DNA of 64,000 nt from Clostridiales bacterium (GTDB taxonomy: Bacteria > Bacillota > Clostridia > Oscillospirales > Oscillospiraceae). Positions 5,274-43,144 of the stretch are shown here, one piece after another. The number at the start of each line of letters is the position of its first letter. Positions within the stretch are counted from its first letter, which is position 1. The stretch spans positions 9,041 to 73,040 of the forward strand of contig JAJUGN010000004.1 in assembly GCA_029265975.1 (NCBI GenBank), given 5' to 3'. The translations under genes were made by a program, and so were the position numbers. The notes beneath the pieces were generated by a model. That model had not been told where the DNA came from. It did not search any database and saw only the letters and a program-made list of their open reading frames with translations.

Positions 5274-5414
5274 ATGCTTATGGTTCCGAATGCGCGGCTC
5301 CACAGATTCTTTTCCGTACCATTATAAAATTGTTTTTTATCAAAAAAATGGTACGAATATTTGAATATGTATGCTACAATGTATTCAAATAATCAGAGAA
5401 AAGAGGTCTTGTAT

Positions 5415-10071: not shown

Positions 10072-10355
10072 TTTTTTTCGCTCGCCTTGTGCCTTTCCGA
10101 AAGCTTTCCGAAGCCGAAGCCGATAATTAAACCGCCTATCGAGGCCTGAAGCGCGAAAAGAAGAGATTCGACCTCGCCGCTCGGGGGCTCGTAAATCGAT
10201 TTGAACCAGGGCTCGTATTCGGGCCTGATTTCGGATATGACGGATTCGGCCTTATCGTCCGCTCCGCCGTACTCTCCCTTCACGATTGCGAGGGGCACGA
10301 CGCATATAAGCAGCGCAAGAGCCAAAAGAAGGAGATTTTTTTTCCAAAGCTTCAT
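10068..10355 (-). CDS. cbiN: Cobalt transport protein CbiN
   Basis: About 95 aa with two TM segments (MKLWKKNLLLLALALL... and ...GGLIIGFGFG). It sits in the canonical position after cbiM. Confidence 0.8.
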   Translation of the reverse strand: MKLWKKNLLLLALALLICVVPLAIVKGEYGGADDKAESVISEIRPEYEPWFKSIYEPPSGEVESLLFALQASIGGLIIGFGFGKLSERHKASEKK

Positions 10356-10368
10356 TTTACAGCCCTCC

Positions 10369-11145
10369 TTAATCCGCTTTAAGCGCCTGAAGCTCGGCGT
10401 TGCTGTACTTTTTGAGTCCGTTATAAACAATGACGGTCAAAATGCCTTCCGCAACGGCGAGAGGCAGCTGCGTAAAGGCGAAAATGCCAAGAAATTTCGC
10501 CGCCGAAACGAAGAAGCCGCCGCCCGAATCTGGGAAGGCCGCTCCGAGTTGGAGCGAAGTCACGATATATGTAAAGATGTCGCCAATAAAAGCCGCTATG
10601 AAAACCGAAACGGTGCTTTTTACGCCCAGCTTCTTAAGCAGGCGGTAGACGAAATAAGAGGCAAAGGGACCGGCTATGCCCATCGAGAAAGTGTTTGCCC
10701 CGAGGGTGGTCAGCCCGCCGTGAGCCAGCAGTATGGCCTGAAAAAGCAGAACGATGACGCCGATCACCGACATGGCGGTGGGCCCGAACATGATCGCGCC
10801 CAGTCCGACTCCCGTCGGGTGGGAGCAGCTCCCTGTCACGGAAGGCAGCTTAAGCGCGGAAAGAACGAAGGCAAAAGCGCCGCACATCGCGAGCAGAAGC
10901 AGCATTCTTGAATTTCCGCTTATCTTTTTCTTAATGGAGAAGAAGCCTTTCACGACGAAAGGGATGCAAATCGCGCCCCAGGCGACGGCCCAGCCGGGAG
11001 GGAGAAAGCCCTCCATTATGTGCATCGCTTTTGCGCCCATAACGGGAAAAGCCAGAACAACCGCCAAAACAACGGCGGCTTTCTGCATGTATTTTTCAAT
11101 TAAAACGCTGTTTTTCGATTTTGACGCTCCGGTTTTTAAGCGCAT
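10369..11145 (-). CDS. cbiM: Cobalt ECF transporter substrate-capture component CbiM
   Basis: [10 protein letters not shown] motif after a signal-like N-terminus. GGGAGG RBS 5 nt before the ATG at 11145. Confidence 0.9.
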
Positions 11146-11156
11146 TTTTACCTCCC

Positions 11157-11188
11157 GGAAAAAACAGCACCCTCCGTCGGGAAGGTGC
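11157..11188 (-). terminator. Intrinsic terminator forming the expression platform of the cobalamin riboswitch
   Basis: Minus strand reads GCACCTTCC-CGAC-GGAGGGTGC followed by TGTTTTTT, immediately 5' of the cbiM RBS. Confidence 0.6.
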
Positions 11189-11235
11189 GTCAATTCCGGC
11201 CTTCGATTGTTTGCCATTGAAATCGACCCTCCTTA

Positions 11236-11428
11236 TGCTTCGTAAGGTTTGAGTTTTCTCGGACGAAAGATGAGCGACATCTCCCGCCCCGGTTCCGGCT
11301 CAGTATCCTGACTAATGCTTCGTCGCGCGGGCCGCCTTCCCGGTTTCATCCAGTGGCATAATGGCCGTAGCTCGGCAAATACAGTTGCGAGACAGCACGG
11401 GATTCTCACCCGTTTCCTGTAACCGAAT
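11236..11428 (-). promoter_or_regulatory. Cobalamin (B12) riboswitch aptamer
   Basis: Minus strand reads ...GGAAACGGGTGAGAATCCCGTGCTGTCTCGCAACTGTA... and B12-box-like GCCACTGG...CCGGGAAGGC. It lies upstream of cobalt uptake genes. Confidence 0.85.
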
Positions 11429-11433
11429 CCGCA

Positions 11434-11463
11434 AATTATAATGTTTTGCAAAACATTATAATT
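11434..11463. repeat. Perfect 30-bp palindrome carrying TATAAT on both strands (operator or divergent -10 candidate)
   Basis: AATTATAATGTTTTGCAAAACATTATAATT is its own reverse complement. It lies just upstream of the riboswitch 5' end. Confidence 0.5.
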
Positions 11464-11639: not shown

Positions 11640-11749
11640 GTACCAAAATCGAGTGCAAACGCAATTAAAAATATATGTTTTGAATAACGCCCGCCGAAGT
11701 GTGAGGGAAGGCCTTCCGACTTCGGGAGACCAGGAAAGCGAGGAATAAC

Positions 11750-14152
11750 ATGAAAGAGATGCTTGAACGCATAGAGAGGATTAAAAAAAGAGTCGTTGTC
11801 GATCACTATCCGATCTGCATCGAGAAATTCCGCATAGCGATGGATATGATAGAGGAGACCAAAAACGACCCCGTAATTGTCCGGAGAGCGAAGATACTGA
11901 GCGCGACGCTTGAGCGGGTGCCCATAGCCATCGCGCCCGACGAGCTTATCGTCGGCATAGGCGCTTCAAAACCCATGGGGCTTGAAATCGACCCCGATTA
12001 CGGAATCTGGACTCAGGACGAGATAGATTCGCTCATCGAGGACGGCTACCAGATGGATCCGCAGGATGTGATAGATCTCCAGGAGCTTAACAAAAAATAC
12101 GATCCCCCCACGCTTATCGGGCAGATGGGAAACATCGTATATGAGAATGAACGCATAATTTCACTGCTTAAGGCGGGAATAATACTCCCGCCGTGGAAGG
12201 ATAAGCAGGAGGGCAGGGGCGTCGGCGGCGGCTACTGCCAGTCCGGCCTCGGCCTCGGGCCTTCGCTTATTCTGCTTTGCATAGACTACACAAAGATGCT
12301 GCACCTCGGCACCAACGCGATGATCAGCCAGGCCAGGGAGGAGAGGAGCAGGCTGCGCTTCGACGAGAAGGGAGCCGTCGCCAAGTTCAATTATTACAAT
12401 TCCGTGATCATGTGTCTGGAGGCCGCTAACAAGCTCGCGCTGCGCTATTCCGCCCTCGCCAGGGAAATGGCGGAAAAGGAGGCGGACCCGAAGCGCCGGG
12501 CGGAGCTTTTGCAGATAGCCGAAAACTGCGCCTGGGTGCCCATGAATCCCGCCAGAACCTTCCGGGAGGCCGTGCAGTGCTTCTGGTTCCAGTTCCTCAT
12601 GCTCAGCCCCTCTACGACGCTGCCGGGAGCGCGCTTCGACCAGTACATGTACCCTTACTACAAGGCGGACATCGAAGCCGGGCGCATAACGAGAGACGAG
12701 GCTCTGGAGCTGCTGTGCCTGCTGCGCCTTAAGGACATGGAGCTTAACCGCACCTCGGGAAAAAATAACCGCAAGAAGAACGCGGGAATGGCCAAGTGGC
12801 ACAACTTCACCATCGGAGGAGTCGACAGGCACGGCAACGACGCGACAAACGACATAACATATCTGCTGCTTGACGCGGCGGCCATAACAAAGGTGCCGCA
12901 CCACACGCTCACGCTCCGAGTACACTCCGGGACGCCGGAAAAGCTGATGCTGAGGGCTCTCGAGGTGGTCAGGATGGGCATGGGAATGCCGGCCTTTGTG
13001 GGCGACGAAAGCTACATAAAGTGCTTTACCTCCCGCGGACTGCCCGTCGAGGACGCAAGGGAGTATGTAATGACAGGATGCCTTGACGCGAACGTGCCCG
13101 GCCTTTCACGCACCGGCCCGGTGCCGATGATAACCATTCCGCTCATTTTTGACATATTCAGGCATAACGGCGTCAACGTAAAAAACGGAGAGCTCTGCGG
13201 CATACGCACGGGCGAGTTCACGGAGTTTGAAACCTACGAGGAGCTTTTTGAAGCCTTCAGGAAGCAGCTCGACTACTGTCTGCGCATCGTGGGGGAAAAG
13301 AACAACATAGAGCTTACCATCACTCAGGAGCTGCTGCCCGACCCGATACGTTCCGCCACGATGTGGCGCGGCATAGAATCCGGGGAGGACACCTTCCGCC
13401 GAACCATGCCGTTTGAAAACGGAGCGGTGCTCAATCCCATAGGCATGGTGAACGTGGGGGATTCTCTCGCGGCAATAAAGAAGCTGGTATTCGACGAGAA
13501 AAAGTACACGCTAAAGGAGCTTAACGACGCGCTTGAAGCCAACTGGGTCGGATTTGAGGATATGCAGAGGGATTTCCTAGCTGCTCCTAAGTTCGGCAAC
13601 AACGACGACTATGTGGATAAGATTGTAGCCGAATGCTATCAGATGTTCTGCGATATCGCGGCGACCATGCCGACGATACTTGGCGGCGTTCACATACCTA
13701 CGGGCATATCAATCACGTCCCATCAGCCGGGCGGAGGACTCACGGGCGCTACTCCGGACGGCCGCAAGGCGGGGGAAATACTTGCAGACGGCACGATGTC
13801 TCCGATGCACGGAATGGACGAACACGGCCCGACGGCGGTGCTGCAGAGCGCCATGAAAATAAATCAGGATCCCTTCCAGGCCACGCTGCTCAATATGAAA
13901 TTCCACCCCTCGGCGCTGAAGACCGAGGAGGATCTTATAAAGCTCGCCAGCATGATAAAGGTATATCTCACGAACGGCGGAAAGCACATACAGTTCAACG
14001 TAGTAGATAAGACAACGCTGCTGGCGGCGAAGTCCGATCCCAAGACCTACCGCGACCTCATAGTGCGCATAGCGGGATACAGCGCATATTTCGTGCAGCT
14101 GAACGAGCAGATGCAGGACGAGGTAATAGCCCGCGTCGAGCACAGGCTGTAA
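11750..14152 (+). CDS. Glycyl radical enzyme, PFL2/dehydratase-like clade, substrate unknown (paralogue 1)
   Basis: 800 aa. C-terminal glycyl radical motif LIVRIAGYSAYF. Cys loop VMTGCLDANVPG. GAGGAA RBS. Confidence 0.9.
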   Translation: MKEMLERIERIKKRVVVDHYPICIEKFRIAMDMIEETKNDPVIVRRAKILSATLERVPIAIAPDELIVGIGASKPMGLEIDPDYGIWTQDEIDSLIEDGYQMDPQDVIDLQELNKKYDPPTLIGQMGNIVYENERIISLLKAGIILPPWKDKQEGRGVGGGYCQSGLGLGPSLILLCIDYTKMLHLGTNAMISQAREERSRLRFDEKGAVAKFNYYNSVIMCLEAANKLALRYSALAREMAEKEADPKRRAELLQIAENCAWVPMNPARTFREAVQCFWFQFLMLSPSTTLPGARFDQYMYPYYKADIEAGRITRDEALELLCLLRLKDMELNRTSGKNNRKKNAGMAKWHNFTIGGVDRHGNDATNDITYLLLDAAAITKVPHHTLTLRVHSGTPEKLMLRALEVVRMGMGMPAFVGDESYIKCFTSRGLPVEDAREYVMTGCLDANVPGLSRTGPVPMITIPLIFDIFRHNGVNVKNGELCGIRTGEFTEFETYEELFEAFRKQLDYCLRIVGEKNNIELTITQELLPDPIRSATMWRGIESGEDTFRRTMPFENGAVLNPIGMVNVGDSLAAIKKLVFDEKKYTLKELNDALEANWVGFEDMQRDFLAAPKFGNNDDYVDKIVAECYQMFCDIAATMPTILGGVHIPTGISITSHQPGGGLTGATPDGRKAGEILADGTMSPMHGMDEHGPTAVLQSAMKINQDPFQATLLNMKFHPSALKTEEDLIKLASMIKVYLTNGGKHIQFNVVDKTTLLAAKSDPKTYRDLIVRIAGYSAYFVQLNEQMQDEVIARVEHRL

Positions 14153-14170
14153 CATAACCCTGAAAGGAAA

Positions 14171-14202
14171 GGGAGCTCCCGGAGAATTTTCCGGGAGCTC
14201 CC
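14171..14202. terminator. Bidirectional terminator between the two convergent GRE genes
   Basis: Perfect 12-bp stem GGGAGCTCCCGG / CCGGGAGCTCCC with an 8-nt loop. Confidence 0.8.
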
Positions 14203-14222
14203 TCTTAATACATTTTTGCGGC

Positions 14223-16613
14223 CTAGACCACGTTTGAGGTGCGCTTGATTATCTCGTCCTGGACCGGCCTTGTGAGCAGGGTGAAGTATGTGCTGTACCC
14301 GGCTACGCGGACGATAAGATCCCTGTAGTCCTGGGGCTTTTCCTGGGCGGCCATGAGAACCTTGTTGTCAACGACGTTGAACTGGATGTGCTTTCCGCCG
14401 TTTGTGAGATAAATCTTAACGAGAGAGGCAAGCTTCATAAGGTCCTCCTCGGTCTTCAGCGCCGAGGGGTGGATTTTCATGTTGAGAAGCATCGCGTTGA
14501 AGGGGTCCTGATTTATTTTCATAGCGCTTCTGAGAGAAACGGTCGGCCCGCTTGTGTCCGTTCCCTGCATCGGGGAAACCGCGCCGTCGGAGAGCGTCTC
14601 GCCTTTTTTGCGCCCGTCTGGGGTTGCGCATGTATAGGAACCGCCGGGCGCGTGGGAGGTGATGGATATGCCGGTGACTCTCGGCGGCTCGCCGTAAATG
14701 CCCCTGAAGGTGTTCGCGCTGTCGGCCCAGAACTGGTAAAGGTCGGCGGCGAGATCGTCCGCCACGTCGATGCCGTTGCCGTATTTGGGAGCCTCAAGGC
14801 AGAGCGCGCGAATATCCTCGTAGCCTTCCCAGTTTGCTTCTATGGCCTTGTAGAGGTCCTCCATGGTGAACTTTTTCTGCTCGAAGACAAGGGTCTTGAC
14901 GGCTGCCATGGAGTTGGCCACGTTTATTACGCCGACAGGGTTCAGCATTGAGGCGTTTTCGTAGGGCATTTTGCGGTCCATCATGTCACGGCCGGACTTT
15001 ATTCCGTCATATGTAAACGCGGAATGGACGACGTCGTTCTGCAGCGCCCTCGTGCAGCGGCAGAGTATGTTGTGCTCCTCGTTGTACATGCTCATAAAAT
15101 GGTAAAGCTGCTTTTTGAACGCCGCGTAGAAATCCTCAAAGGTCTTGAAATCCTTCATTTCGCCGGTCGCAGGGCCTATCTGCTCGCCAGTGGCCGTATT
15201 CACGCCGTTGTGCATCGTGATATCCAGCACTCTCGGCACTATGAACATGCCGAGCGCGTTTATGCGGGACTTTCCGGGCAGGTTGAGGTCAAGGCAGCCG
15301 GCAAGGGCGTAATCGCGCGCCTCCTCGAGAGGAACCCCCTGACCGACAAGCCCGCTTATATAGCTCTCGTCGGAGACGAAGGCGGGCATTCCAATACCGG
15401 TTCTGACCAGCTCCATGGCCTTTTTCATGAGCTCGTCGGGAGTGTCTTTGTTCACGCGGACCGTGATCGTGTACTGGGGCGTTCTGACTTCGTTAGCCGC
15501 CTCGATTATGAGATAGGAAAGCTCGTTCGTGGCGTCCTTGCCGTTCCTGTCGACGCCGCCGATAAGGAAGTTGTGCCATCTCGCCATGCCGGCCCACTTG
15601 TCTCGCTGCTGCTTGCCGCCGTTTACAAAATTGAACTGCATGATCTTGATGCGAAGGCATTCTATGAGCTCCAAAGCCTCGTCGCGCGTAAGCTCGCCGC
15701 TCTCGATGTCTTTTTTGTAATATGGGTACATTATCTGGTCGAAGCGCCCGCCGGGGGTGACTCCGTGAGCTATCATCATCCAGTAGAACCAGAAGGCCTG
15801 CATCGCGTCCCGGAAATTGCGCGCCGGGTGCTCGGCTATCCAATGGCAGCTGTCAGCCATGCGCAGGAGCTCGGCCTTGCGGCGCTGGTCTGAAGTGGAC
15901 TTTGCCTTTTCCATGCAGACGTCGCCGTAACGGTGGTACATGCGGACCATTGCGCCGAGGGCTATTATAACGGCCTGCAGGTACTGGGATTTGTCGAAGG
16001 ATTCGCTGTCGGTGTAACGAAGGTTCCTGAGCTCCTCCTCCGCGTCGTCGAGGGTCGCCTTGACTCCGTATGAGATTATCCTGGCATAGTCCGGAACAAA
16101 GAAGCTGAGTCCTATGCCCATGCCCCAGCCGAAGCCGGCTCCGCCGCCGCCGCGGCCCTTCTGCTTATCCGTCCAGGGCGGGCAGAGCACGCCGGACCTG
16201 ATGAAGGGCCACAAGCGCGCGTCGTCGTAAAAAGTGCCCTGCCATTCATAAAACTGGCGGCCCTTTCCCGCCCAGAAGGAGTCGAGCTCGCGCAAAGCCT
16301 TCCGGTCCTCCGGGTCGATGGTGAAGTTGCCCTGCAAAAGGCCGTCCAAATCCTCGTCGTCCCAGAAGGGGCCCCAGCAGGAGGCCTCCATTCCCATGGG
16401 TTTTGAAGCGACGTTCCCCACGATCAGCTCGTCTTCGTCCACATAAATGGTTCTCTTGTCAAGGTAGTTTGCGGTTTCGTAGGCTCTCTGAAGTATGCTC
16501 GGAAGCCCCTCGTGAGCGCTCCATGCCTCAATGACAAGCTTCGCTTTCTCCGCGCATATGGGATACTTATCCACATTCAGCGCCGCCAACATTCGTTTGA
16601 TCCTGTCGGTCAT
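14223..16613 (-). CDS. Glycyl radical enzyme, PFL2/dehydratase-like clade, substrate unknown (paralogue 2)
   Basis: About 796 aa. LIVRVAGYSTYF glycyl motif. Cys loop ALAGCLDLNLPG. Colinear similarity to 11750-14152. The RBS context GAAAGCGAGGAATA is shared with paralogue 1. Confidence 0.9.
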   Translation of the reverse strand: MTDRIKRMLAALNVDKYPICAEKAKLVIEAWSAHEGLPSILQRAYETANYLDKRTIYVDEDELIVGNVASKPMGMEASCWGPFWDDEDLDGLLQGNFTIDPEDRKALRELDSFWAGKGRQFYEWQGTFYDDARLWPFIRSGVLCPPWTDKQKGRGGGGAGFGWGMGIGLSFFVPDYARIISYGVKATLDDAEEELRNLRYTDSESFDKSQYLQAVIIALGAMVRMYHRYGDVCMEKAKSTSDQRRKAELLRMADSCHWIAEHPARNFRDAMQAFWFYWMMIAHGVTPGGRFDQIMYPYYKKDIESGELTRDEALELIECLRIKIMQFNFVNGGKQQRDKWAGMARWHNFLIGGVDRNGKDATNELSYLIIEAANEVRTPQYTITVRVNKDTPDELMKKAMELVRTGIGMPAFVSDESYISGLVGQGVPLEEARDYALAGCLDLNLPGKSRINALGMFIVPRVLDITMHNGVNTATGEQIGPATGEMKDFKTFEDFYAAFKKQLYHFMSMYNEEHNILCRCTRALQNDVVHSAFTYDGIKSGRDMMDRKMPYENASMLNPVGVINVANSMAAVKTLVFEQKKFTMEDLYKAIEANWEGYEDIRALCLEAPKYGNGIDVADDLAADLYQFWADSANTFRGIYGEPPRVTGISITSHAPGGSYTCATPDGRKKGETLSDGAVSPMQGTDTSGPTVSLRSAMKINQDPFNAMLLNMKIHPSALKTEEDLMKLASLVKIYLTNGGKHIQFNVVDNKVLMAAQEKPQDYRDLIVRVAGYSTYFTLLTRPVQDEIIKRTSNVV

Positions 16614-16695
16614 CGTATATTCCTCGCTTTCTGTTCCGTGTTTTTCAAAATACAACAAGTCTGAACTCAGGTGCGTATTGGTCTTTTTCAGCTAA

Positions 16696-16723
16696 AGTAT
16701 ATCATTCCGAGGCCCGTTTTCAA
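16696..16723 (-). promoter_or_regulatory. Candidate promoter of glycyl radical enzyme 2
   Basis: Minus strand reads TTGAAA - 16 nt - TATACT, downstream of the terminator that follows the PrpD-like gene. Confidence 0.35.
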
Positions 16724-16893
16724 GGCGTTGGGGCGTAGGGGAAGCAAGTGTATGCAAAGCTGGCTATGCAGGCTTAAAAATAGCGGCACGATGCACAAAA
16801 TACCTGAAAAACGAGATTTTGCTGAATAAGGGCAGCAATAATCGCGTAAGGATAACTTCGAGTCAGAATTCGAGGCGTTTTTCGGCAAATAAT

Positions 16894-16939
16894 AAACCCC
16901 GCTCCGAGGGATTGTTCCGAAAGGCCGAAGGCGGGGTTT
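16894..16939 (-). terminator. Intrinsic terminator after MmgE/PrpD-family gene
   Basis: Minus strand reads AAACCCCGC ... GCGGGGTTT followed by ATTATTT. Confidence 0.55.
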
Positions 16940-16959
16940 GGCGCTGCCGTATTAAGGCG

Positions 16960-18339
16960 TCAGAGCAGCTCCGCGAGCTGAGAAATGTTCTCAAGCTTTT
17001 CAAGATTTTTCACGGCAAGCTCAAGCCTATTAAGTTCGTCCGCGCTTCTGGGGTAAAGCGCGCCGGCGGCGCAGGCGCGCATTTTGGCTGCCATGCCCTC
17101 GGCATTCATAGGGTTTTCCGGTGTGCCGTAAGGCGATGAAACCATTTTGCTGAAAACTCCGCGCTCCGTAAATATTGTCGTTTCGGCCCATGTCTCCCTG
17201 CCCCTGCCCCAGTCCTCGCATATCTCGTGCGTAAACTTTTTGGTCAGGTCAAGGATGCGCGGGTCGGCATATTTTTCGGCGGAAAAGCTCGAGAGCGTTA
17301 CGTCGCCGTTTATTATGGCCTCCGCGACGGTAAACGGTATGCTGAACTTCGCTATTATGGAGGCAGTGGGAGACTTTCTGATTTCCTCGGGCTCAAGCAG
17401 TATGCGGTTGAGCTGCGCCGCCTTTACATGAATGCGGGTGATTTCTTCAGGCGCGATTTTATGCTCTTTTACGAGCTGCAGAGCGGCGTCTATGCAGGAA
17501 TGCGTTCCGAAGCAGCTCGGCCATGCCTTGAAGGTGAGCTTCTCGCACTCAAAGTCCCTGCCGAGACCTTCAAGCACGCGCGACTTTGTGTATTCTCCCC
17601 GCAGATATGCTTGATAGAAGCCGTTTTTGCCCTCCAGAGGCTCCGCAAAGCCCTTCAGCCCGCGCTTCGCCATATAGCAGGACAAAATCGCCGACTTCGA
17701 GGTGAAGCTCTCACGGACCGAGCGCACTACGGTGTCGGAGTTGTTCAGCAGCTCCGAGCTGCAGGTCGCCTGGCACAGATTAAAGGAAAAGGCGTTCACC
17801 GTTTCCTCCGGGGACAGGTCGAGCAGCCTGGATACCGCGGCGACGGCGCCGAACGAGGAGTAGATGGTGGGGATATAAAAACCGTAGGAGGTCGTGTTTA
17901 TATCGGCGCCCATGGCTATGCGGCAGGCGGTCTCGCTTCCCACCACCAGGGCCGTCAAAAATTTCTTTCCGCCGATATTTCCGAGCTTTTCGGCCACCGC
18001 AAGCGCCGCCGGGAAGGAGGAGGAGTTTGAATGTATGGTGCTCCTGCTGTGCGTGTCCCCGAAGTCGAGCGAATGAGCCATGGAGCCGTTGGCGAAGGCG
18101 GCCCAGGGCGCGGGAAGCTTTTTTCTGAAGCCTATAACCGTCGCCTCCGGCCTGCCGCCTGCCGACAGCTCCTCGGCGAGCTCAACCATTTCCCGGCAGC
18201 CGTCGCCGAGCGTCGCCGCGCCGAGCGTTATCGCGATCGCGTCCATGACGGATTTTTTCTGCGTTTCGATCACAGATGCGGGGATATCCTCAAACTGGGT
18301 TTTAGAGACAAATTCGGCCAGCTGATAAGACAGTCCCAT
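16960..18339 (-). CDS. MmgE/PrpD-family protein (2-methylcitrate dehydratase-like fold; function unknown)
   Basis: 459 aa. N-terminus LAEFVSKTQFEDIPASVIETQKKSVMDAIAITLGA is typical of MmgE/PrpD. Confidence 0.85.
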   Translation of the reverse strand: MGLSYQLAEFVSKTQFEDIPASVIETQKKSVMDAIAITLGAATLGDGCREMVELAEELSAGGRPEATVIGFRKKLPAPWAAFANGSMAHSLDFGDTHSRSTIHSNSSSFPAALAVAEKLGNIGGKKFLTALVVGSETACRIAMGADINTTSYGFYIPTIYSSFGAVAAVSRLLDLSPEETVNAFSFNLCQATCSSELLNNSDTVVRSVRESFTSKSAILSCYMAKRGLKGFAEPLEGKNGFYQAYLRGEYTKSRVLEGLGRDFECEKLTFKAWPSCFGTHSCIDAALQLVKEHKIAPEEITRIHVKAAQLNRILLEPEEIRKSPTASIIAKFSIPFTVAEAIINGDVTLSSFSAEKYADPRILDLTKKFTHEICEDWGRGRETWAETTIFTERGVFSKMVSSPYGTPENPMNAEGMAAKMRACAAGALYPRSADELNRLELAVKNLEKLENISQLAELL

Positions 18340-18442
18340 TCCGGTGTTCCTCCTTTGATTATGATAATAACGGCTTAAGAGCCTGCGCGGTTTCCCGGCC
18401 GGGCGATTATAGAATGCCGGCTCGGAAGATCCGAAAAAGCGC

Positions 18443-20452
18443 CTATACCTTGAAGCAGGCGGCCTGATGCCCGTTGCCGTAGTCCGAAAGCGGCGGGGCG
18501 GAGCGCCTGCACCGCTCGTCGGCGTGGGGGCAGCGGGGATGGAATACGCAGCCGTCGGGACGGTTTATAAGGCTGGGGACCTCGCCCTCGATGCGGGTTC
18601 TCACGCGCTCCTTTTCGACAATCGGGTCGGGGATGGGTATGGCCGACAGCAGGGCCTTCGTATATGGATGAAGAGGCTTTTCGTAAAGCTCGTTCCAGGG
18701 GGAGATCTCCACCACCCTGCCGAGATACATTACCACTATTCTGTCGCTTATATGGCGCACGACGGAAAGGTCGTGCGCGATGAACAGATACGTGAGCCCG
18801 CGCTTTGCCTGAAGGTCTATCAGGAGGTTTATTATCTGGGCCTGGATCGACACGTCGAGCGCGGATATTGGTTCGTCGCAGATGACGAAGCTCGGTTCGG
18901 ACGAAAGGGCGCTCGCTATGCTGAGGCGCTGCCTCTGGCCGCCAGAAAACTCATGGGGGACCCTGTTCTTAAGAGCGGGATCAAGCCCTACGGCCATAAA
19001 AAGCTCATCAACTTTCCGCGAATACTCCTCCGGCGTTTTTGCAAGCCTGTGGGCCTTTATCGCCTCGCCCACTATGCTTCCCGCGCTCTGGCGCGGGTCG
19101 AGAGAGCCGAAAGGGTCCTGGAAAATAAACTGGACCTCTCGGCGGACGTCCTTAAGCCTGCGCTCCGGAAGCTTTGAAATATCCCTTCCGTTGAAGATTA
19201 TGCTGCCGCCGGTTACGTCGTAAAGGCGGAGTATCGTTTTCGCGAGAGTGGTTTTGCCGCAGCCGGATTCCCCTACCAGACCGAGGGTTTCGCCCCTGTA
19301 TATCTCGAAGCTCACGTCGTCGAGCGCTTTAACGTCAGCTATCTTCCTGCGGGTTACGCCTTTGAAGACCGGAAAGTATTTCTTTACGTTTTTCAGCTCA
19401 AGAATCTTCTCGGAAGAGATTCTTTTAGTTAAAACGCTTTCGGCGGCATCGGGCCGCCTATTTTTCAGCTCCTCGGGCCTGAACCAGCAGGCGGAGGCGT
19501 GAGCAGGGGAATATTCGATATAGGGAGGCATGGAGTCCTCGGAGCACTTTTCGGCTGCGAAGGGGCAGCGTTCCCAAAAGGGGCAGCGCCCGCTTTTTTT
19601 CGCGGGATTGGGCGGCAAGCCGTCTATTGCGACAAGACGCCTTGACTTGTCGCTGTCAAGCCTGGGTATCGCTTTGAGGAGGCCCATGGTATAAGGGTGG
19701 CTCGTTTCGCGGAATATTTCCTCGCTGGTGCCCCGCTCGACGATATTGCCGGCATACATGACGTATACGCGCTGGGCGTACCTCGCGACTATGCTTAGGT
19801 TGTGGGTGATTATAATAAGAGCTGTGTTTGTTTTTTTGACTATCTCCCGCAGAAGCTCCAGTATCTGCTCCTGGGTGGTGACATCAAGCGCGGTTGTGGC
19901 CTCGTCGGCGATGAGTATCTTTGGGCTGCTGGCCATAGCCATCGCTATCATTATTCGCTGGCGCATTCCGCCGGAAAACTGCGTCGGATAATAGTTTATC
20001 CGGCTTTCACCGTCCGGAATGCCCACAAGGCGGAGAAGCTCTATCGCGCGCTCTCGCGCCCTGGCCCTGGAATAGCCGAGGTGCAGCATTACGCTCTCCT
20101 CTATTTGCTGCCCCACTGTAAGCACGGGGTTAAGCGAGGTCATTGGCTCCTGAAATACCATGGATATACCGCCGCCGCGGACCTTTCGTATCTCGCTGCT
20201 TTTAGTGTCATAAGAGAGGATGTTTTCGCCCTGAAATATTGCTTCGCCGCCGGCGATTTCGCCGGGCGGCATTTCTATAAGCTTCAAAACGCTCATCATG
20301 GTCACGGATTTTCCGCTGCCGGACTCTCCGACTATGCCGATTATTTCGCCCTCGTCCACATAAAGGCTCGCATCGTCGACAGCGCGCATAACGCCTTCTC
20401 GCATGCGGAAAAGGGTCTTAAGATGCCTTATTTCCAATAAATGCTCGGACAT
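18443..20452 (-). CDS. Fused double ATPase of a peptide/opine-type (Dpp/Opp-like) ABC importer
   Basis: Two ABC cassettes (GESGSGKS...LSGGMRQR...; GESGCGKTT...FSGGQRQR) with C-terminal oligopeptide-type Cys motifs. Confidence 0.9.
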   Translation of the reverse strand: MSEHLLEIRHLKTLFRMREGVMRAVDDASLYVDEGEIIGIVGESGSGKSVTMMSVLKLIEMPPGEIAGGEAIFQGENILSYDTKSSEIRKVRGGGISMVFQEPMTSLNPVLTVGQQIEESVMLHLGYSRARARERAIELLRLVGIPDGESRINYYPTQFSGGMRQRIMIAMAMASSPKILIADEATTALDVTTQEQILELLREIVKKTNTALIIITHNLSIVARYAQRVYVMYAGNIVERGTSEEIFRETSHPYTMGLLKAIPRLDSDKSRRLVAIDGLPPNPAKKSGRCPFWERCPFAAEKCSEDSMPPYIEYSPAHASACWFRPEELKNRRPDAAESVLTKRISSEKILELKNVKKYFPVFKGVTRRKIADVKALDDVSFEIYRGETLGLVGESGCGKTTLAKTILRLYDVTGGSIIFNGRDISKLPERRLKDVRREVQFIFQDPFGSLDPRQSAGSIVGEAIKAHRLAKTPEEYSRKVDELFMAVGLDPALKNRVPHEFSGGQRQRLSIASALSSEPSFVICDEPISALDVSIQAQIINLLIDLQAKRGLTYLFIAHDLSVVRHISDRIVVMYLGRVVEISPWNELYEKPLHPYTKALLSAIPIPDPIVEKERVRTRIEGEVPSLINRPDGCVFHPRCPHADERCRRSAPPLSDYGNGHQAACFKV

Positions 20453-20471
20453 TTTATGCTCCTTTCCGCCG

Positions 20472-21320
20472 TCACAGCGCTCCGCGCAGACGCGGATCGA
20501 GCGCGTCGCGCAGCCCGTCGCCGAATATGTTGAAGGCCAGCACGAGGATAATTATTGCGAAGCCGGGCGCCAGCGCAAAAAGGGAGTTTGTCGTCAGATA
20601 TCTGTACCCGTCGTTCACCATGGCGCCCCAGGAGGCGGTGGGCGGGAGTATGCCGGCTCCGAGGAAGCTCAGCGCGGCTTCGGCAAGAATCGTGTTGCCT
20701 ATGCTCTGAGTCATGATCACAATCATCGGGGAAAGACAGTTGGGGAGAATGTGCCTCAGCATGGTGACGAAGCTCCTGTTCCCGCGAATCCTGCTGGCGG
20801 AAACATAGTCCAGGTCGCGCACGGTGAGCACCTGGCCGCGCATCATCCGGGCGAAAGGCGGGATGTTAGAGACCGCAAGCACCACGGTAAGCATGGTCAT
20901 GCTGCGCCCGAGTATGGCCACAAGGGCGAGCGCGAGGATAAGCGGGGGGATGGCCATCATCGCTTCGACTATCCTCATGATGACGTTGTCCACCCATCCT
21001 CCGAAATAACCGGATAAAAGGCCGAAGACCGTTCCGACTATGCCGGACATTATAACAGAGAAAATTCCTACGATAAAGGCTATCCTGGTGCCGTAGACTA
21101 TGCGGCTGTATACGTCGCGCCCGTACTGGTCGGTGCCTAGCCAGTGCCTTGAGGAAGCGCCCTGAAGAAATTCTGCCAGGTTCTGCTGGTTGGGGTCGTG
21201 AGTCGCAAAAACGGGTGAGGCCACCGCGCAGAGCAGGAAGAAAAGTATGACGAGCGCGGAAACAACCACAAGCTTCCGGGAAAACAAGGTCCGGAAGAAA
21301 ATTTTCGCTTTGTCGTTCAT
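20472..21320 (-). CDS. ABC importer permease (DppC/OppC-like)
   Basis: Polytopic protein with a binding-protein-dependent transport motif. The ATG at 21320 lies just after the upstream permease stop. Confidence 0.85.
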   Translation of the reverse strand: MNDKAKIFFRTLFSRKLVVVSALVILFFLLCAVASPVFATHDPNQQNLAEFLQGASSRHWLGTDQYGRDVYSRIVYGTRIAFIVGIFSVIMSGIVGTVFGLLSGYFGGWVDNVIMRIVEAMMAIPPLILALALVAILGRSMTMLTVVLAVSNIPPFARMMRGQVLTVRDLDYVSASRIRGNRSFVTMLRHILPNCLSPMIVIMTQSIGNTILAEAALSFLGAGILPPTASWGAMVNDGYRYLTTNSLFALAPGFAIIILVLAFNIFGDGLRDALDPRLRGAL

Positions 21321-21331
21321 CTCCGCGCCTC

Positions 21332-22276
21332 CTATTCCAGCCTGATGCGGGGGTCCGCATAAGCGTACGCTATGTCTACAAGAAGATTGCATATACATGT
21401 AACCGCTGCGAGAAGCAGCAGGCTTGTCTGCAAAGTTGTATAATCGCGGTTGTTGAGCGACATCACCATTACCTGCCCGAGGCCGGAAATGTTGAATATC
21501 GTTTCGATGATTGCCGAGCCGCCGAAGCTGTTGCGAAGCGTGAGACCGATGAGCGTGAGTATCGGTATGAGAGCGTTTTTGACGGCGTGGCCGTAAATGA
21601 TTTTAGATTCCTTCAGCCCTTTGGATCTCGCTGTGCGTATGTAGTCCTGCCGGATAACCTCCAGCATGCTGGAGCGCGTCTGTCTTGCGTATATGGCGAC
21701 GCCGCCGACGCTCATGCATATGACAGGCATTATCGTCTGCCTTAAGCTCAGTACCGGGTTCTCCCAGGGGAGGGTGAAGCCGTGCACCGGAAGCCATTTC
21801 AGCTTGAGCCCGAAGATGAGTATGAGGATCACCGCCAGCCAGAACGTGGGCATTGCTATGCCTATGTTTGCAAGCACCGTTATCACGGAATCGGTCTTCG
21901 AGCCGCGCCTTACCGCCGTCACGATCCCGAAAAATATGCCCAAAATCACGCTGAAAACGGCGGAAACTATGCCCAGATAAAGAGTCGTCGGAAGGCGGTT
22001 CATGACCACTTCCGCAACCGTCTGCCGGAAGTAATAGGAATATCCCAAATCTCCCTTAAGTATGTTGCCGAGCCAGAAGAAATACTGCTCGACAAGAGGC
22101 CTGTCAAGTCCCATCGTGTGATATACCTGGTCGTGGTACTCCTTCGGGATCTCCGAGCCGAGCATGGCGTAAACGGGATCGCCCGGGACAAGGTGTATAA
22201 GCGAAAAAGCGATCACGGATATGATAAGGAGGATCACGACGGTCTGAAAAAGCCTGTTTATTATGTATTTAGCCAT
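21332..22276 (-). CDS. ABC importer permease (DppB/OppB-like)
   Basis: MAKYIINRLFQTVVILLIISVIAFSLIHLVPGDP is the canonical DppB/OppB N-terminus. Confidence 0.9.
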   Translation of the reverse strand: MAKYIINRLFQTVVILLIISVIAFSLIHLVPGDPVYAMLGSEIPKEYHDQVYHTMGLDRPLVEQYFFWLGNILKGDLGYSYYFRQTVAEVVMNRLPTTLYLGIVSAVFSVILGIFFGIVTAVRRGSKTDSVITVLANIGIAMPTFWLAVILILIFGLKLKWLPVHGFTLPWENPVLSLRQTIMPVICMSVGGVAIYARQTRSSMLEVIRQDYIRTARSKGLKESKIIYGHAVKNALIPILTLIGLTLRNSFGGSAIIETIFNISGLGQVMVMSLNNRDYTTLQTSLLLLAAVTCICNLLVDIAYAYADPRIRLE

Positions 22277-22352
22277 AGCTGCTCCTTATGCAAAATTCGG
22301 GAACCGCCCAGGATGCCTGTTAGCCGGGCGGTTCCCGAATTCTATTGCGGCA

Positions 22353-23939
22353 TTATTTGGTGATCTTGACGGTCTCGGGAGTCCATGTGTAGATCGCGGT
22401 GGTGGCGATGCCGTGATCCTTTACCTTCGCTGTTCCGGCATAGAGGTTCTGAGTTATGTAAAGCGGGAAATACAGGCAGAGCTCGTCGATGTTCTTTTTC
22501 TGGAGATCCATAAGAGCCGTTTTCTGCTGGGCGGGATCCGTCCCGTACATGTACTTCGAATAAAGATCGATTACGCCCGCGGCCTTCAGGTCCATAGCGG
22601 GTCCGACCATGGTCGTCGGAGTGGTGGTGAAGTAGCGGGTCCAGCCCGTGGCGTTGGGCGGGGCTATCCACTGGGCCGTGCTGGTGTAGGGGGTGGGCTT
22701 GCCGACGATTATGCGGTCGCCGTATACCGCGGCGTCGACCTCGTCCAGCTTGACGTTGAAGCCGGCGGCCTGGAGATAGCCCTGAATGGCGACATAGATA
22801 TCCTTGAACTGGAGCTGATAGGTCAGGGTGACGGTAGGCTTGTTGGTATCGCTGTATCCCGCCTTCTTGAGAAGCTCCTTGGCCTTGTTGACGTCATACG
22901 GGTATCCGACTACCTTGTCGTTGTATTCCTGCGTGCCCGGCACCGCAAGCTGGTTCGTATATGTTCCGGTGCCGTAGGTAAAGGCCTTGATTATCGCTTT
23001 CGTGTCTATGGCGTGGCAGAAGGCCTGGCGCACGAGGAGGTTGCCCATCGGGTCGGTCTTGCTGCCGCTTGCAAAGAATATGCCCTGGAGAGTCGGAGTG
23101 ATGCAGGTGTCAAGGCCGAAGCGCTGGAAGCCCGCGGCGATGAGGTCTGTGTAAACCTTGGAGTCCACGATGTTCAGCATTACCTGCGCCTCGCCGCTTT
23201 TGAGTATGTTGGCCGCGGTGTTTATGTCCTTGGCCGTGATTATCTTTATGCCGTCCAGGAAGGGCTGGCCCTTGATTCTGTAATTGGGGTTTTTCGTGTA
23301 TTCGATGCCCTCGCCGACCTTTACGGATTTCGCGACGAAGGGGCCGGTGCCGACTATCCTGGTGTACATGCCTTCCATGCCGTACTGCTTGAACAGAGCA
23401 GGCTGGATCATCCATCCGGCCTCGATGAAGACGCGGCTCAGGGTGTCTGCCGCCCACTGGGTCAGCATAACGGTAACTTCGTTATTTCCTGTGGCGGAGT
23501 AGCTTTTAACGTTGGAGAATTTTGATGCGTAGCCGTTTGCCTTGTAGATGTCCCATACGTCCACTACCGTCTTTGCGTTGAAATCCGCTCCGTCGGAGAA
23601 CTTGACGCCTTCCTGAAGCTTGACGACGATTTTAAGGTTGGCCTTGTCAACGTTTATTTCCTTTGCCAGCCAGGGTATGACCTCGCCCTTTTCATTGTAG
23701 CGGGCAAGGGTTTCGATTGCGGGCGCAGAGCAGAACTGCTCCACGAATCCTCCCGCTATCGGGAAGCCGGAAACATTTTTGAGAACGCCGCCGTTGACTA
23801 TCGTAAGCGTTCCGCCCGTTCCAGCTGCCGTGTTTGCGGAAGGCGCGGGAGTGCTCTGCGTTCCGCCTCCGCAGGCGGTCAGAGCAAGCAGCAATACAGC
23901 CGCTAAAAGAAGCGACACCAGTTTTTTAGCTCTTTTCAT
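22353..23939 (-). CDS. Family-5 ABC substrate-binding lipoprotein (peptide/nickel/opine type)
   Basis: Lipobox signal MKRAKKLVSLLLAAVLLLALTACGG. About 528 aa. GAGGAGG RBS. Confidence 0.9.
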   Translation of the reverse strand: MKRAKKLVSLLLAAVLLLALTACGGGTQSTPAPSANTAAGTGGTLTIVNGGVLKNVSGFPIAGGFVEQFCSAPAIETLARYNEKGEVIPWLAKEINVDKANLKIVVKLQEGVKFSDGADFNAKTVVDVWDIYKANGYASKFSNVKSYSATGNNEVTVMLTQWAADTLSRVFIEAGWMIQPALFKQYGMEGMYTRIVGTGPFVAKSVKVGEGIEYTKNPNYRIKGQPFLDGIKIITAKDINTAANILKSGEAQVMLNIVDSKVYTDLIAAGFQRFGLDTCITPTLQGIFFASGSKTDPMGNLLVRQAFCHAIDTKAIIKAFTYGTGTYTNQLAVPGTQEYNDKVVGYPYDVNKAKELLKKAGYSDTNKPTVTLTYQLQFKDIYVAIQGYLQAAGFNVKLDEVDAAVYGDRIIVGKPTPYTSTAQWIAPPNATGWTRYFTTTPTTMVGPAMDLKAAGVIDLYSKYMYGTDPAQQKTALMDLQKKNIDELCLYFPLYITQNLYAGTAKVKDHGIATTAIYTWTPETVKITK

Positions 23940-24021
23940 CAAAATCCTCCTCATAAAAATAACTTTTACTATGTATTCAAGTGCGCGTAAAAATATGGCG
24001 GAGACTGTGCGGCCTAAATAA

Positions 24022-24035
24022 CTAAATCGATTTAG
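24022..24035. promoter_or_regulatory. Candidate LacI-family operator (perfect 14-bp palindrome)
   Basis: CTAAATCGATTTAG has a central CG in an AANCGNTT-type core. It lies in the divergent region between the SBP operon and lacI-family gene. Confidence 0.45.
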
Positions 24036-24172
24036 CAAAAACGCACACCCAATAGCAATTATAAATTATAAACAAAAAAGCATAAAAAGTCAATCTGAAA
24101 TCGGGTGCTTTGTGCGAAATGACTTGTGTAATATGGATTTTTATGTATAATGAGAACAGAGGGGGGAGACCG

Positions 24173-25228
24173 ATGGCAAGTATAGAGGATGTGGCGAACA
24201 AGGCGGGCGTGTCGGTCAGCACGGTGTCTTTTGTTCTGAACGGACGCGCGGAGGAAATGAGGATTTCCGAAAAAACCATAAACAAGGTTTTCGCGGCGTC
24301 GCAGGAGCTGGGATATATACCGAACCTGGCCGCGAAAAAGCTCTCCAGCCGCGGCGGATCTTCGCTTCCGGAGGTTGCGCTGTTTTGGACTCCCGTTCAG
24401 AACTCTACTTTTTTGACAGTCTTTATTTCCGAGGCGCAGGCCCTTTTCGACGAGGGGGGAGCGCGCGAGATGCGTTTTGTGGTGGAGCCGTTCAGGACAG
24501 GGAAGCTTTGCCAGCTTGAGGACGTGCTTACGGGCGGGCAATACAACGGCGTAATAGTGCCTCCCGTATCCTTGGAGGACATAGAATACATGAATTCGCT
24601 CGACCTCCACATTCCCGTTGTGATGCTTCACGGCGGGACCGACAAGTATTCGATGCTCTCTCTTGACAACTATGAGGCGGGGCATAAGGCGGCCGAGATA
24701 TTCGCCGCAAGGGGATTCAAGAAAGTCGCGGTTGTTAATCACAAGTGCAGCTCCGAGGATTACAACGTGATGAACCGCAGCAGGGGATTTCTGGACGCCT
24801 GCGACGAGTACGGGCTGACCGCCGAAATCATCGACGCCGAAATGAAGCAGATACCCGGGATGGCCTTTTTTAACAAGAACGCGGGGCTCGGCAGCATAGC
24901 GGCGGAAAATCTGCTCAGGAGGGGCAGCCTTCCGGAGGCCGTGTTCATTCAAAACGACAGCCTCGCCGCCAGATTTATGAATACAATGACGGACGCCGGG
25001 GTGAAAGTGCCGGGCGACCTGGAGATAATAACCTTCGGAAACGAATTTCTTTCTGAAACCTGCCGCCCATCGATGACGGCTATACAGTTTCCGACCGCCG
25101 AGCTCACCAGGGAGGCGATAATGCTTATGTCGGACCTGCTGGTAAATCCTCTGGCGCCGCTGCGGAGAAAAACGCTGATACCAAAGGTCATTTTCAGGCA
25201 GAGCTGCCCGAAGCCGCCGGGGTTTTGA
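24173..25228 (+). CDS. LacI-family transcriptional regulator
   Basis: HTH MASIEDVANKAGVSVSTVSFVLNG plus a periplasmic-binding-protein-like core. AGGGGGGAG RBS. Confidence 0.9.
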   Translation: MASIEDVANKAGVSVSTVSFVLNGRAEEMRISEKTINKVFAASQELGYIPNLAAKKLSSRGGSSLPEVALFWTPVQNSTFLTVFISEAQALFDEGGAREMRFVVEPFRTGKLCQLEDVLTGGQYNGVIVPPVSLEDIEYMNSLDLHIPVVMLHGGTDKYSMLSLDNYEAGHKAAEIFAARGFKKVAVVNHKCSSEDYNVMNRSRGFLDACDEYGLTAEIIDAEMKQIPGMAFFNKNAGLGSIAAENLLRRGSLPEAVFIQNDSLAARFMNTMTDAGVKVPGDLEIITFGNEFLSETCRPSMTAIQFPTAELTREAIMLMSDLLVNPLAPLRRKTLIPKVIFRQSCPKPPGF

Positions 25229-42671: not shown

Positions 42672-42762
42672 TATGCTTATATTTGGCAAACCTGCGGAAA
42701 CGCCGGGACGCAAAACTCTAGAGCCTAAGTCGCTTGCGATAAGGCAGTCAGTTGCATGTTCG
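42672..42762 (+). promoter_or_regulatory. c-di-GMP-I (GEMM-I) riboswitch-like aptamer 1
   Basis: GGCAAACCTGCGGAAACGCCGGGACGCAAAACTCTAGAGCC...AAGGCAGTCAGTTGCA matches the GGCAAA / GNRA hairpin / GACGCAAAGC core as recalled from the Vc2 aptamer. Confidence 0.7.
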
Positions 42763-43130: not shown

Positions 43131-43144
43131 AGAGCATCGAAGAT

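Follow-up and report, generated by a model that had tools for sequence, protein, structure and literature searches.

Glycyl radical enzymes (GREs) lie behind several reactions of gut anaerobes that bear on health, among them the formation of trimethylamine, p-cresol, skatole and sulfide and the use of hydroxyproline, and new functions of these enzymes have mostly been found through clues from gene context. Here we report a GRE locus in a 64,000-bp stretch of DNA of a Clostridiales bacterium (Oscillospiraceae; assembly GCA_029265975.1, contig JAJUGN010000004.1, positions 9,041 to 73,040), hereafter called the window, to which all coordinates without a locus number refer. The locus combines two GRE genes (GRE1 and GRE2), a gene of the MmgE/PrpD family (the PrpD-like gene), an ATP-binding cassette (ABC) importer with a family-5 solute-binding protein (SBP), and a LacI-family regulator. 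The pairing of such PrpD-like genes with GREs of one superclade, which carry a Cys-x-Asp motif in the active site, is real and specific. A literature search found no publication that links a GRE to PrpD/MmgE or describes such a system, and both GRE2 and the PrpD-like protein score below the NCBIfam cut-offs; the locus is thus uncharacterised, as a preliminary description made from the sequence alone had held.

Structure of the locus

All genes named in the preliminary description are present on the strands that it gave; only start codons had to be corrected, and these were reset using the lengths of orthologues, ribosome-binding sites and the sequence itself. The ABC operon is encoded on the minus strand and begins with the SBP gene (22353–23939; ATG at 23939, 528 amino acids (aa); SBP_bac_5, 190 bits). 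Its product had been described as a lipoprotein, which agrees with the lipobox LTAC in the N-terminus (MKRAKKLVSLLLAAVLLLALTAC). It is followed by the genes of an OppB/NikB-type permease (21332–22276, minus strand; BPD_transp_1_N and BPD_transp_1), an OppC/NikC-type permease (20472–21320, minus strand; OppC_N and BPD_transp_1), whose start at the ATG at 21320 matches the 282-aa orthologues, and a fused OppD-OppF double ATPase (18443–20452, minus strand; 669 aa; two ABC_tran and two oligo_HPY domains). The terminal gene of the operon is the PrpD-like gene (16960–18339, minus strand; 459 aa), with Pfam scores of 204 bits for MmgE_PrpD_N and 111 bits for MmgE_PrpD_C against cut-offs of 32. Divergent from the SBP gene, a LacI-family repressor of 351 aa (24173–25228, plus strand; LacI HTH and Peripla_BP_3 in Pfam) starts at the ATG at 24173, downstream of the TTG at 24110 where the listed open reading frame (ORF) began.

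About 350 nt of regulatory DNA separate the PrpD-like gene from GRE2 (14223–16613, minus strand), which starts at the ATG at 16613 and encodes 796 aa; the listed ORF (14223–16658, minus strand) matched the PFL-like domain PF02901 with 543 bits and the Gly_radical domain PF01228 with 106 bits. Beyond the region covered by the preliminary description lies its paralogue GRE1 (11750–14152, plus strand; 800 aa), which is convergent with GRE2 across a gap of 70 bp and 48% identical to it. The locus is flanked by housekeeping genes, namely cbiMNQO with a cobalamin riboswitch, the B12-dependent ribonucleotide reductase gene nrdJ, and genes of TatD and DnaB/DnaI-like proteins. Its base composition does not depart from that of the remaining window, so that the term 'island', if taken to mean a compositionally foreign insert, does not apply. 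A GRE activase is absent from the 64-kb window, as judged by tblastn with two activases of related loci and by Pfam scans of candidate ORFs; the sole radical S-adenosylmethionine (SAM) ORF met in the window (44265–45521) is HemN-like.

The ABC operon is preceded by a promoter-like site (24065–24093, minus strand; TTGACT-17-TATAAT, 11 of 12 consensus matches). Between this site and the SBP start, downstream of the −10 element, lies a perfect 14-bp palindrome centred on CG (CTAAATCGATTTAG, 24022–24035), which occurs in a single exact copy in the window. It is conserved at the same relative position in two of the related loci described below, exactly in L010, the nearest relative genome, and with one mismatch in L143, and sits where a LacI-type operator would be expected, which makes it a candidate operator. 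Downstream of the PrpD-like gene, an intrinsic terminator (16894–16939, minus strand) consists of a hairpin followed by a U-run. Its stem (AAACCCCGC/GCGGGGTTT) is kept in L010 with a different loop, and its fold alone is unexceptional (z −1.5). GRE2 is preceded by a promoter of its own (16696–16723, minus strand; TTGAAA-16-(TG)TATACT), situated in a block (16696–16815, minus strand) that also contains repeats with TGCAT (e.g. 16748–16764); about 110 nt of this block are common to the window and L010, and the adjoining intergenic DNA is not conserved. Since both the terminator stem and the promoter block have been kept, GRE2 forms its own transcription unit, in line with the terminator and separate promoter of the preliminary description. 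A perfect 15-bp hairpin between GRE1 and GRE2 (14170–14203; −44.5 kcal/mol over 101 nt, z −5.3) forms a bidirectional terminator.

A common control of GRE2 and the ABC operon found no support in the sequence: the window holds no second copy of the palindrome, even with three mismatches, so that GRE2 lacks a LacI operator upstream. Inverted repeats upstream of GRE2 were not found, and its conserved upstream motif is unique in the window and missing upstream of GRE1. The 350 nt that separate the PrpD-like gene from GRE2 gave no match in Rfam, and the idea of a riboswitch or leader there was dismissed. Directly before the start codons of GRE1 (11724–11749) and GRE2 (16614–16640) there is a near-identical stretch, GAAAGCGAGGAATA, followed by 2–4 nt and the ATG, which is kept in L010 and may be a remnant of a duplication or a shared signal for translation initiation.

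The glycyl radical enzymes

GRE2 has the hallmarks of the superfamily, the barrel and the glycyl-radical domain, with the Gly loop RVAGYS; the Gly loop of GRE1 reads RIAGYS. The catalytic Cys of GRE2 (C440) aligns with C433 of glycerol dehydratase and is invariant in the alignment of homologues. It stands in the loop GCLD, which places an aspartate at position 442 and holds a single Cys, not the adjacent Cys-Cys of pyruvate formate-lyase (PFL); the Cys loop of GRE1 (GCLDANVPGLSR) also contains GCLD. The nearest solved structures to GRE2 are glycerol dehydratase (1r8w, 462 bits), CutC (457 bits) and diol dehydratase (434 bits), followed at a distance by benzylsuccinate synthase (310 bits), 4-hydroxyphenylacetate decarboxylase (276 bits) and PFL (107 bits). 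GRE2 stays below all NCBIfam cut-offs, both of the models for CutC (481 of 1050 bits), HypD (502 of 1100), HpsG (498 of 1000) and the PFL2-3 subfamily (TIGR01774, 545 of 678) and of the PFL equivalogs TIGR01255 (123 vs 994 bits) and PRK09983 (426 vs 1109 bits).

GRE2 thus resembles the 1,2-eliminases and isomerases among the GREs (B12-independent glycerol dehydratase, propanediol dehydratase, CutC, HypD, HplG, YbiW/PflD), which have the same barrel, RVAGYS loop and single Cys, provide its best solved-structure matches and are about one-third identical to it. Loci related to that of the window through the GRE superclade also carry a dedicated activase, and in one case an aldehyde dehydrogenase, as the eliminases and isomerases do. 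The main difference lies in the active site. In the available part of a June 2026 review, all characterised eliminases and isomerases keep Cys-x-Glu, the Glu being hydrogen-bonded to a substrate hydroxyl (PMC13450708), whereas GRE2 has Cys-x-Asp. GRE1 and GRE2 belong to a superclade in which all 49 distinct sequences, those of a metagenome scan included, carry the Cys loop GC[LVIMF]D. In comparison with 59 Cys-x-Glu GREs, the superclade has the invariant residues R321, R337, K339 and R450, which the latter lack, and as further specific features W346, I649 and a Gly-rich insertion (153–164); the Asp/Glu split was itself the sorting criterion of this comparison and gives no independent evidence, whereas the other positions are independent of it. 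Some of the superclade-specific positions align with or beside Tyr339 and Tyr640, which we take, from structure 1R9D, to belong to the glycerol pocket. Equivalents of His164 and Asp447 of glycerol dehydratase are missing from GRE2 in the alignment, and genes for a microcompartment do not accompany it. If the additional basic residues line the pocket, they would fit an anionic substrate. The accessible text of the June 2026 review names no GRE that acts on di- or tricarboxylates, and the terms 'citrate' and 'dicarboxyl' are unmatched there (PMC13450708).

The superclade comprises the clades A, B, C and D, which are mutually 43–52% identical and are often encoded side by side. GRE2 belongs to clade A and GRE1 to clade B; GRE1 is 90% identical to a GRE of locus L001 (GREc) and 76% identical to a GRE of Blautia. 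Clade-A and clade-B GREs are neighbours in L001, L002, L022, L063 and L069. Three adjacent Cys-x-Asp paralogues of the superclade occur per locus in L001 (7532–14849; clades C-A-B), L069 and L088.

To our knowledge, the fumarate-adding GREs (benzylsuccinate and alkylsuccinate synthase) represent the sole GRE setting in which substituted succinates are known. These enzymes differ from GRE2 in several respects: TutD and MasD reach 310 bits, below nine other GRE types (up to the 462 bits of glycerol dehydratase), the gaps beside GRE1 and GRE2 (70 bp and about 350 bp) leave no space for small-subunit genes, and the hosts found here are gut fermenters, not hydrocarbon degraders. In the related locus L061, two family-III CoA-transferase genes, an acyl-CoA dehydrogenase gene and genes of electron-transfer flavoprotein (ETF) lie by the PrpD-like gene, a set that recalls BbsEF and BbsG of the bbs beta-oxidation genes.

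The PrpD-like protein

Iminodisuccinate epimerase was the best match (182 bits) of a profile built from 15 homologues of the protein, ahead of cis-aconitate decarboxylase (157 bits) and, by a wide margin, genuine PrpD (61 bits). The role of PrpD proper, 2-methylcitrate dehydratase, was rejected, as the NCBIfam equivalogs score far under their cut-offs (51 vs 575, 42 vs 950 and 38 vs 458 bits) and no prpB- or prpC-type genes were found among the window ORFs scanned. The equivalents of four catalytic residues (H89, D92, H103 and K271) are invariant among the 15 homologues. Compared with iminodisuccinate epimerase (reference residues H85, D88, H99, H150, K198 and K266), R206 replaces Lys198 and Y155 replaces His150, and the position aligned with the second base Tyr145 is not conserved in the window protein. 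Characterised members of the MmgE/PrpD family all use free acids with a C2/C3-substituted succinate backbone, which react via an enolate through residues that have been listed (PMC12290011).

The window protein thus shares both family domains and the His/Asp/His/Lys enolate core with iminodisuccinate epimerase and (S)-(R)-methylsuccinate isomerase, and is encoded beside a transporter, as expected for an enzyme that acts on a free acid. It differs from these epimerases in the two substitutions (Tyr155 for His150, Arg206 for Lys198), in an overall identity of about 25%, and in its partner, which is a GRE and not a C-N lyase or a CoA-transferase/acyl-CoA dehydrogenase set. Its core chemistry has probably been kept while the contacts to the substrate have probably been altered, and the protein is probably an enolate-forming isomerase of a substituted succinate; the roles of epimerase, dehydratase and decarboxylase are not separable by sequence.

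Linkage of PrpD-like and GRE genes

Gene neighbourhoods were gathered via homologues of GRE2, via homologues of the PrpD-like protein and via an alignment scan for PrpD-like proteins in one genome per species, and all fetched loci were annotated with one common seed set. A metagenome scan for clade-A GREs used a back-translated pattern that proved too generic: 14 of its 80 loci fell into the superclade, most of them on short contigs, and the rest served as controls.

For the core set, an identity of at least 55% to the PrpD-like protein of the window was required, which gave 22 distinct loci; their hosts are Oscillospiraceae, Lachnospiraceae/Blautia, Intestinimonas, three Clostridium isolates in culture and a metagenome-assembled genome of Spirochaetia. 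A GRE of the same superclade lay within 10 kb of the PrpD-like gene in 15 of these loci, often directly adjacent, and six of the seven loci without a GRE had little flank on at least one side (four contigs of 2.8–6.2 kb, and two with 1.3 or 2.3 kb upstream). The gene order around the pair differs between loci, and so does the transporter beside it, which is TctABC in 10 loci, CitMHS/MatC in eight and an ABC importer of the window type in two (the window and L010). Such shuffling of genes and exchange of transporter types across hosts means that simple inheritance does not explain the linkage. Among the controls, no PrpD-like gene was found in the 66 loci of other GRE families and no GRE in the 17 aerobic PrpD-like loci. 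In a common gut species, a gene of a second PrpD subfamily (39% identical) is separated by only 4 bp from that of a clade-A GRE.

Several other genes recur at the related loci. PGA_cap genes, which encode CapA-like proteins of about 385 aa, adjoin the PrpD-like gene in most loci and superclade GREs in three metagenome contigs; the one named relative of their products is MslH (NCBIfam, 97 bits; PDB 8gq9), a metal-dependent epimerase that acts at the alpha-carbon of the C-terminal residue (PMC8179263). In 12 related loci, a superclade GRE has an activase gene next to it. Also recurrent are HTH_30 regulators, a distant URO-D/MtaA-like protein, and HGD-D with a family-III CoA-transferase. A beta-lactamase-family serine hydrolase occurs in six loci (L031, 7171–8787; L023, L026, L035, L043 and L073), in L031 and L043 between the transporter and the PGA_cap-PrpD genes; within NCBIfam it comes closest to 3-succinylated cholic acid synthase (132 bits vs a cut-off of 800). 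An aldehyde dehydrogenase, which was met once and together with a GlcD-like dehydrogenase, lies with an activase beside the superclade GRE, CitMHS, PrpD-like and PGA_cap genes of L062. The window holds none of these partners (PGA_cap, HTH_30, URO-D-like protein, activase, HGD-D/CoA-transferase, beta-lactamase-family hydrolase, aldehyde dehydrogenase with GlcD-like dehydrogenase).

In Sphingomonas and relatives (L044–L059), aerobic PrpD-like proteins that are 29–36% identical have PGA_cap within about 6 kb, which suggests that the partnership of PrpD-like proteins and PGA_cap is older than, and independent of, the GRE; the other neighbours there (P450, alcohol and aldehyde dehydrogenases, enoyl-CoA hydratase and acyl-CoA synthetase) gave no usable hint of a substrate.

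The LacI-operator-ABC cassette

The SBP of the importer belongs to a small family: the database search gave just 15 proteins with an identity of 38% or above. The solved structures nearest to the SBP are remote (5u4o, GsiB/YliB, AgaA and NikA, all with E values of at least 6e-30), and it lies under every NCBIfam cut-off for peptide, nickel and opine binding (e.g. NikA, 105 vs 393 bits; GsiB, 103 vs 594 bits). The ATPase and the permeases score well against the Opp/Dpp/Nik models of NCBIfam. The system has an SBP_bac_5 lipoprotein, two BPD_transp_1 permeases, oligo_HPY ATPases and a palindromic candidate operator in common with Opp/Dpp/Nik/opine importers under LacI control; it differs from them in an SBP that lies under every named NCBIfam model, in the fusion of the two ATPases, and in that the other members of its small SBP family sit with esterases. 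The LacI protein is under all NCBIfam equivalog cut-offs as well (best RbsR, 145 vs 382 bits).

Orthologues of the LacI protein in L010 (93% identical) and L143 (64%) are both divergent from the same ABC cassette. L143 contains the whole cassette, with identities to the window of 64% for LacI, 62% for the SBP, 84% for the OppB-like permease, 78% for the OppC-like permease and 85% for the fused ATPase, and it ends with an alpha/beta-hydrolase gene at the place that the PrpD-like gene has in the window. The architecture of the fused ATPase recurs in L005, L143, L146 and L147. The SBPs of L144 and L146 are 44% identical to that of the window, and their cassettes lie amid Abhydrolase_1, Esterase and COesterase/BD-FAE genes. 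An orthologous cassette in L147 is accompanied by a GH51 arabinofuranosidase, with HGD-D, family-III CoA-transferase, PGA_cap and URO-D-like genes nearby; its HGD-D and CoA-transferase are 60–80% identical to those that flank the GRE pair of Blautia, and the presence of the cassette beside GRE-associated genes is an independent sign of company between the two sets. L147 (568–21313) also has an alpha/beta-hydrolase and a RACo-type corrinoid activator, and its gene set may point to the import of plant material in esterified form and perhaps to O-demethylation.

The LacI-operator-ABC cassette is therefore a separate conserved unit that normally serves hydrolases, and the window and L010 represent a recombinant join in which the cassette fills the place held elsewhere by Tct or CitMHS transporters. 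The joined arrangement of ABC importer, PrpD-like gene and GRE2 is kept in L005/L010. These results qualify the picture of one linked unit that the preliminary description had drawn. Co-occurrence of the GRE with the PrpD-like gene extends across the core set, but the four-part combination of GRE, PrpD-like gene, family-5 ABC importer and LacI regulator was found only in the window and in one near relative (L005/L010). At other loci the PrpD-GRE pair is accompanied by TctABC or CitMHS/MatC and by HTH_30 regulators, and the LacI-ABC cassette (62–85% identity, same operator) ends in hydrolases or esterases.

Proposed function and alternatives

We tentatively propose, as a plausible reading, that the two conserved modules of the locus jointly catabolise an imported carboxylate-rich compound by isomerisation via an enolate and a subsequent radical step of the GRE. 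The compound most likely has a C2/C3-substituted succinate core and is possibly delivered as an ester or other conjugate. The LacI protein would bind the palindrome at 24022–24035 and repress the operon of SBP, permeases, ATPase and PrpD-like gene until an effector appears, upon which the ABC system would import the compound. The PrpD-like enzyme would then remove and return a proton next to a carboxylate via an enolate, so that the free acid is epimerised or isomerised to the form accepted by the GRE; a dehydration or decarboxylation by this enzyme is less likely. GRE2 would be expressed from its own promoter and activated in trans by a radical-SAM activase whose gene would lie in the genome outside the window. 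Its C440 thiyl radical would abstract a hydrogen atom, with D442 acting as acid/base and the invariant Arg and Lys residues holding the carboxylates, and a step of the 1,2-elimination type or a rearrangement would yield a product that enters central metabolism.

The preliminary description had suggested an amino-acid or sugar conjugate as substrate. The exchange of transporters at the pair and the chemistry of the MmgE/PrpD family favour a substituted succinate or other polycarboxylate over a peptide or a plain sugar, and the version with an ester conjugate is kept alive by the esterase partners of the cassette.

Several findings weigh against this joint pathway. The conserved terminator and the separate promoter split the PrpD-like gene from GRE2, which has no LacI operator before it, so that co-regulation is unproven. 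In other loci, the last genes of orthologous LacI-ABC cassettes encode alpha/beta-hydrolases or esterases, and the fetched DNA contains neither a PrpD-like gene nor a GRE. The clade-A GRE loci L001, L002, L004, L063–L065, L069 and L088 have no PrpD-like gene in the fetched flanks, which makes it an accessory at most and not an obligate partner of these GREs, and PrpD-like proteins of the window type elsewhere pair mainly with clade-C GREs, not with clade A. Among more distant PrpD-like loci (45–53% identity, plus the 39% identical paralogue of L007), just 4 of 16 contain a GRE, and L061, one of those without, has CoA-transferases, acyl-CoA dehydrogenase/ETF and a 2-hydroxyacyl-CoA dehydratase set instead. 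An activase is missing within 64 kb, and the substrate class, the order of the steps and their chemistry are what we infer from gene content, motifs, operon boundaries and cross-genome linkage. The same separation of the units, cassettes without either partner, clade-A loci without a PrpD-like gene and preference for clade C would also be in keeping with a mosaic of neighbours, in which the LacI-ABC-PrpD operon and the GRE pair serve independent pathways in a stretch rich in organic-acid genes and the PrpD-like enzyme does not feed the GRE; L010, which has GRE2 without GRE1, and L001, which has the GRE pair without a PrpD-like gene, point the same way. Such a mosaic is unlikely, though it deserves serious consideration: a superclade GRE accompanies the close PrpD-like genes in 15 of 22 loci despite shuffled order and swapped transporters, the control GRE loci (0 of 66) lack the PrpD-like gene, and two PrpD subfamilies each adjoin clade-A GREs.

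It is somewhat more doubtful that the ABC system brings in an esterified conjugate from plant or host, such as a sugar ester or an ester of a hydroxy-dicarboxylic acid, for instance with a hydroxycinnamoyl group, of which the PrpD-like enzyme and the GRE would handle the acid part. LacI regulators usually sense sugars or sugar acids, downstream of orthologous cassettes lie Abhydrolase_1, Esterase or COesterase/BD-FAE genes and, in one case, the GH51 arabinofuranosidase, and the beta-lactamase-family hydrolase of six loci weakly matches 3-succinylated cholic acid synthase. Against this, the operon of the window has no esterase gene, the nearest alpha/beta-hydrolase-like ORF (5361–6506) is a weak match cut off by unrelated genes, the family matches of the hydrolases are far under cut-offs, and the SBP is merely 44–62% identical to those of the esterase cassettes, so that its ligand may differ. 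That the genes have ordinary functions, GRE2 as PFL or glycerol/diol dehydratase, the PrpD-like protein as 2-methylcitrate dehydratase and the ABC system as a peptide or nickel importer, is very improbable. Homologues bear the database names 'formate C-acetyltransferase' and '2-methylcitrate dehydratase PrpD', and the ATPase and permeases fit the Opp/Dpp/Nik models; but GRE2 has a single Cys followed by x-Asp, which differs from both the Cys-Cys of PFL and the Cys-x-Glu of the dehydratases, and lacks the counterparts of His164 and Asp447 of glycerol dehydratase. Equivalog scores (PFL, 123–426 vs 994–1109 bits; PrpD, 38–51 vs 458–950 bits), the lack of prpB- and prpC-type genes among the scanned ORFs and an SBP under every peptide, nickel and opine cut-off speak against it as well.

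Beyond the joint pathway itself, the Cys-x-Asp GREs might constitute a new mechanistic class that acts on free polycarboxylic acids, for example as a B12-independent carbon-skeleton mutase, an idea that we regard as improbable. Such a mutase would interconvert branched C5 acids with a succinate core (methylsuccinate, 3-methylmalate, methylitaconate) and linear C5 diacids (2-hydroxyglutarate, glutarate, 2-methyleneglutarate), the latter being passed on to the 2-hydroxyacyl-CoA dehydratase, CoA-transferase and beta-oxidation genes of related loci. In a milder version, the GRE would be a radical dehydratase of hydroxylated succinates (stereoisomers of tartrate or hydroxycitrate), with the PrpD-like enzyme and the MslH-like PGA_cap protein as epimerases. 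A polycarboxylate class is suggested only by the genes that keep recurring alongside, by the change in the catalytic motif and by the superclade-specific cationic residues. Diol dehydration and ribonucleotide reduction are already served by both B12-dependent and glycyl-radical enzymes, and the carbon-skeleton mutases would join them.

Catabolic loci built around a GRE are a known kind, from which that of the window is set apart by its catalytic motif, its partner genes and the substrate class that it probably has. The pairing of PrpD-like proteins and GREs across gut and rumen anaerobes probably marks an undescribed route of oxygen-free breakdown of carboxylic acids. A large group of GREs from gut, rumen and digesters shares the Cys-x-Asp motif, the extra basic residues and a recurring set of partners, and stands outside the curated NCBIfam models, the available part of the June 2026 review (PMC13450708) and the literature found. 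If the proposed function holds, it would add free di- and tricarboxylic acids as a substrate class of GREs and explain what one branch of the MmgE/PrpD family does, many of which are uncharacterised. The locus is a good lead for enzyme discovery. The system is compact (one repressor with a clear operator, one SBP, one PrpD-like enzyme and two GRE paralogues), and related loci have cultured carriers, such as Clostridium sp. MCC353, OM02-18AC and chh4-2, with Geosporobacter ferrireducens for the GRE pair alone.

Other observations

The GRE-less locus L061 (1813–15958) contains an operon of the PrpD-like gene, two family-III CoA-transferases, acyl-CoA dehydrogenase and ETF, and a divergent unit of CitMHS, PGA_cap, CoA-transferase, a BcrAD_BadFG activator and two HGD-D genes. 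The locus as a whole looks like genes for the activation of methylsuccinate or benzylsuccinate, combined with a 2-hydroxyacyl-CoA dehydratase.

In the window, the cobalamin riboswitch (11280–11442, minus strand; 84 bits) precedes the cobalt-transporter genes of cbiM, cbiQ and the ATPase (8411–11217). It fills part of the spacer upstream of GRE1, but on the strand opposite to that gene and as an element of the cbi genes. The ORF at 5361–6506 (plus strand; 381 aa) has weak alpha/beta-hydrolase matches (PETase-like, 26 bits); it is situated 5 kb off GRE1, past a xanthine/uracil permease and the cbi genes, and probably has nothing to do with the locus. Three tandem c-di-GMP-I riboswitch aptamers (42675–43229, plus strand; 64, 62 and 60 bits) lie upstream of an ORF of 284 aa (43318–44172), which has merely weak Pfam matches of the coiled-coil type.

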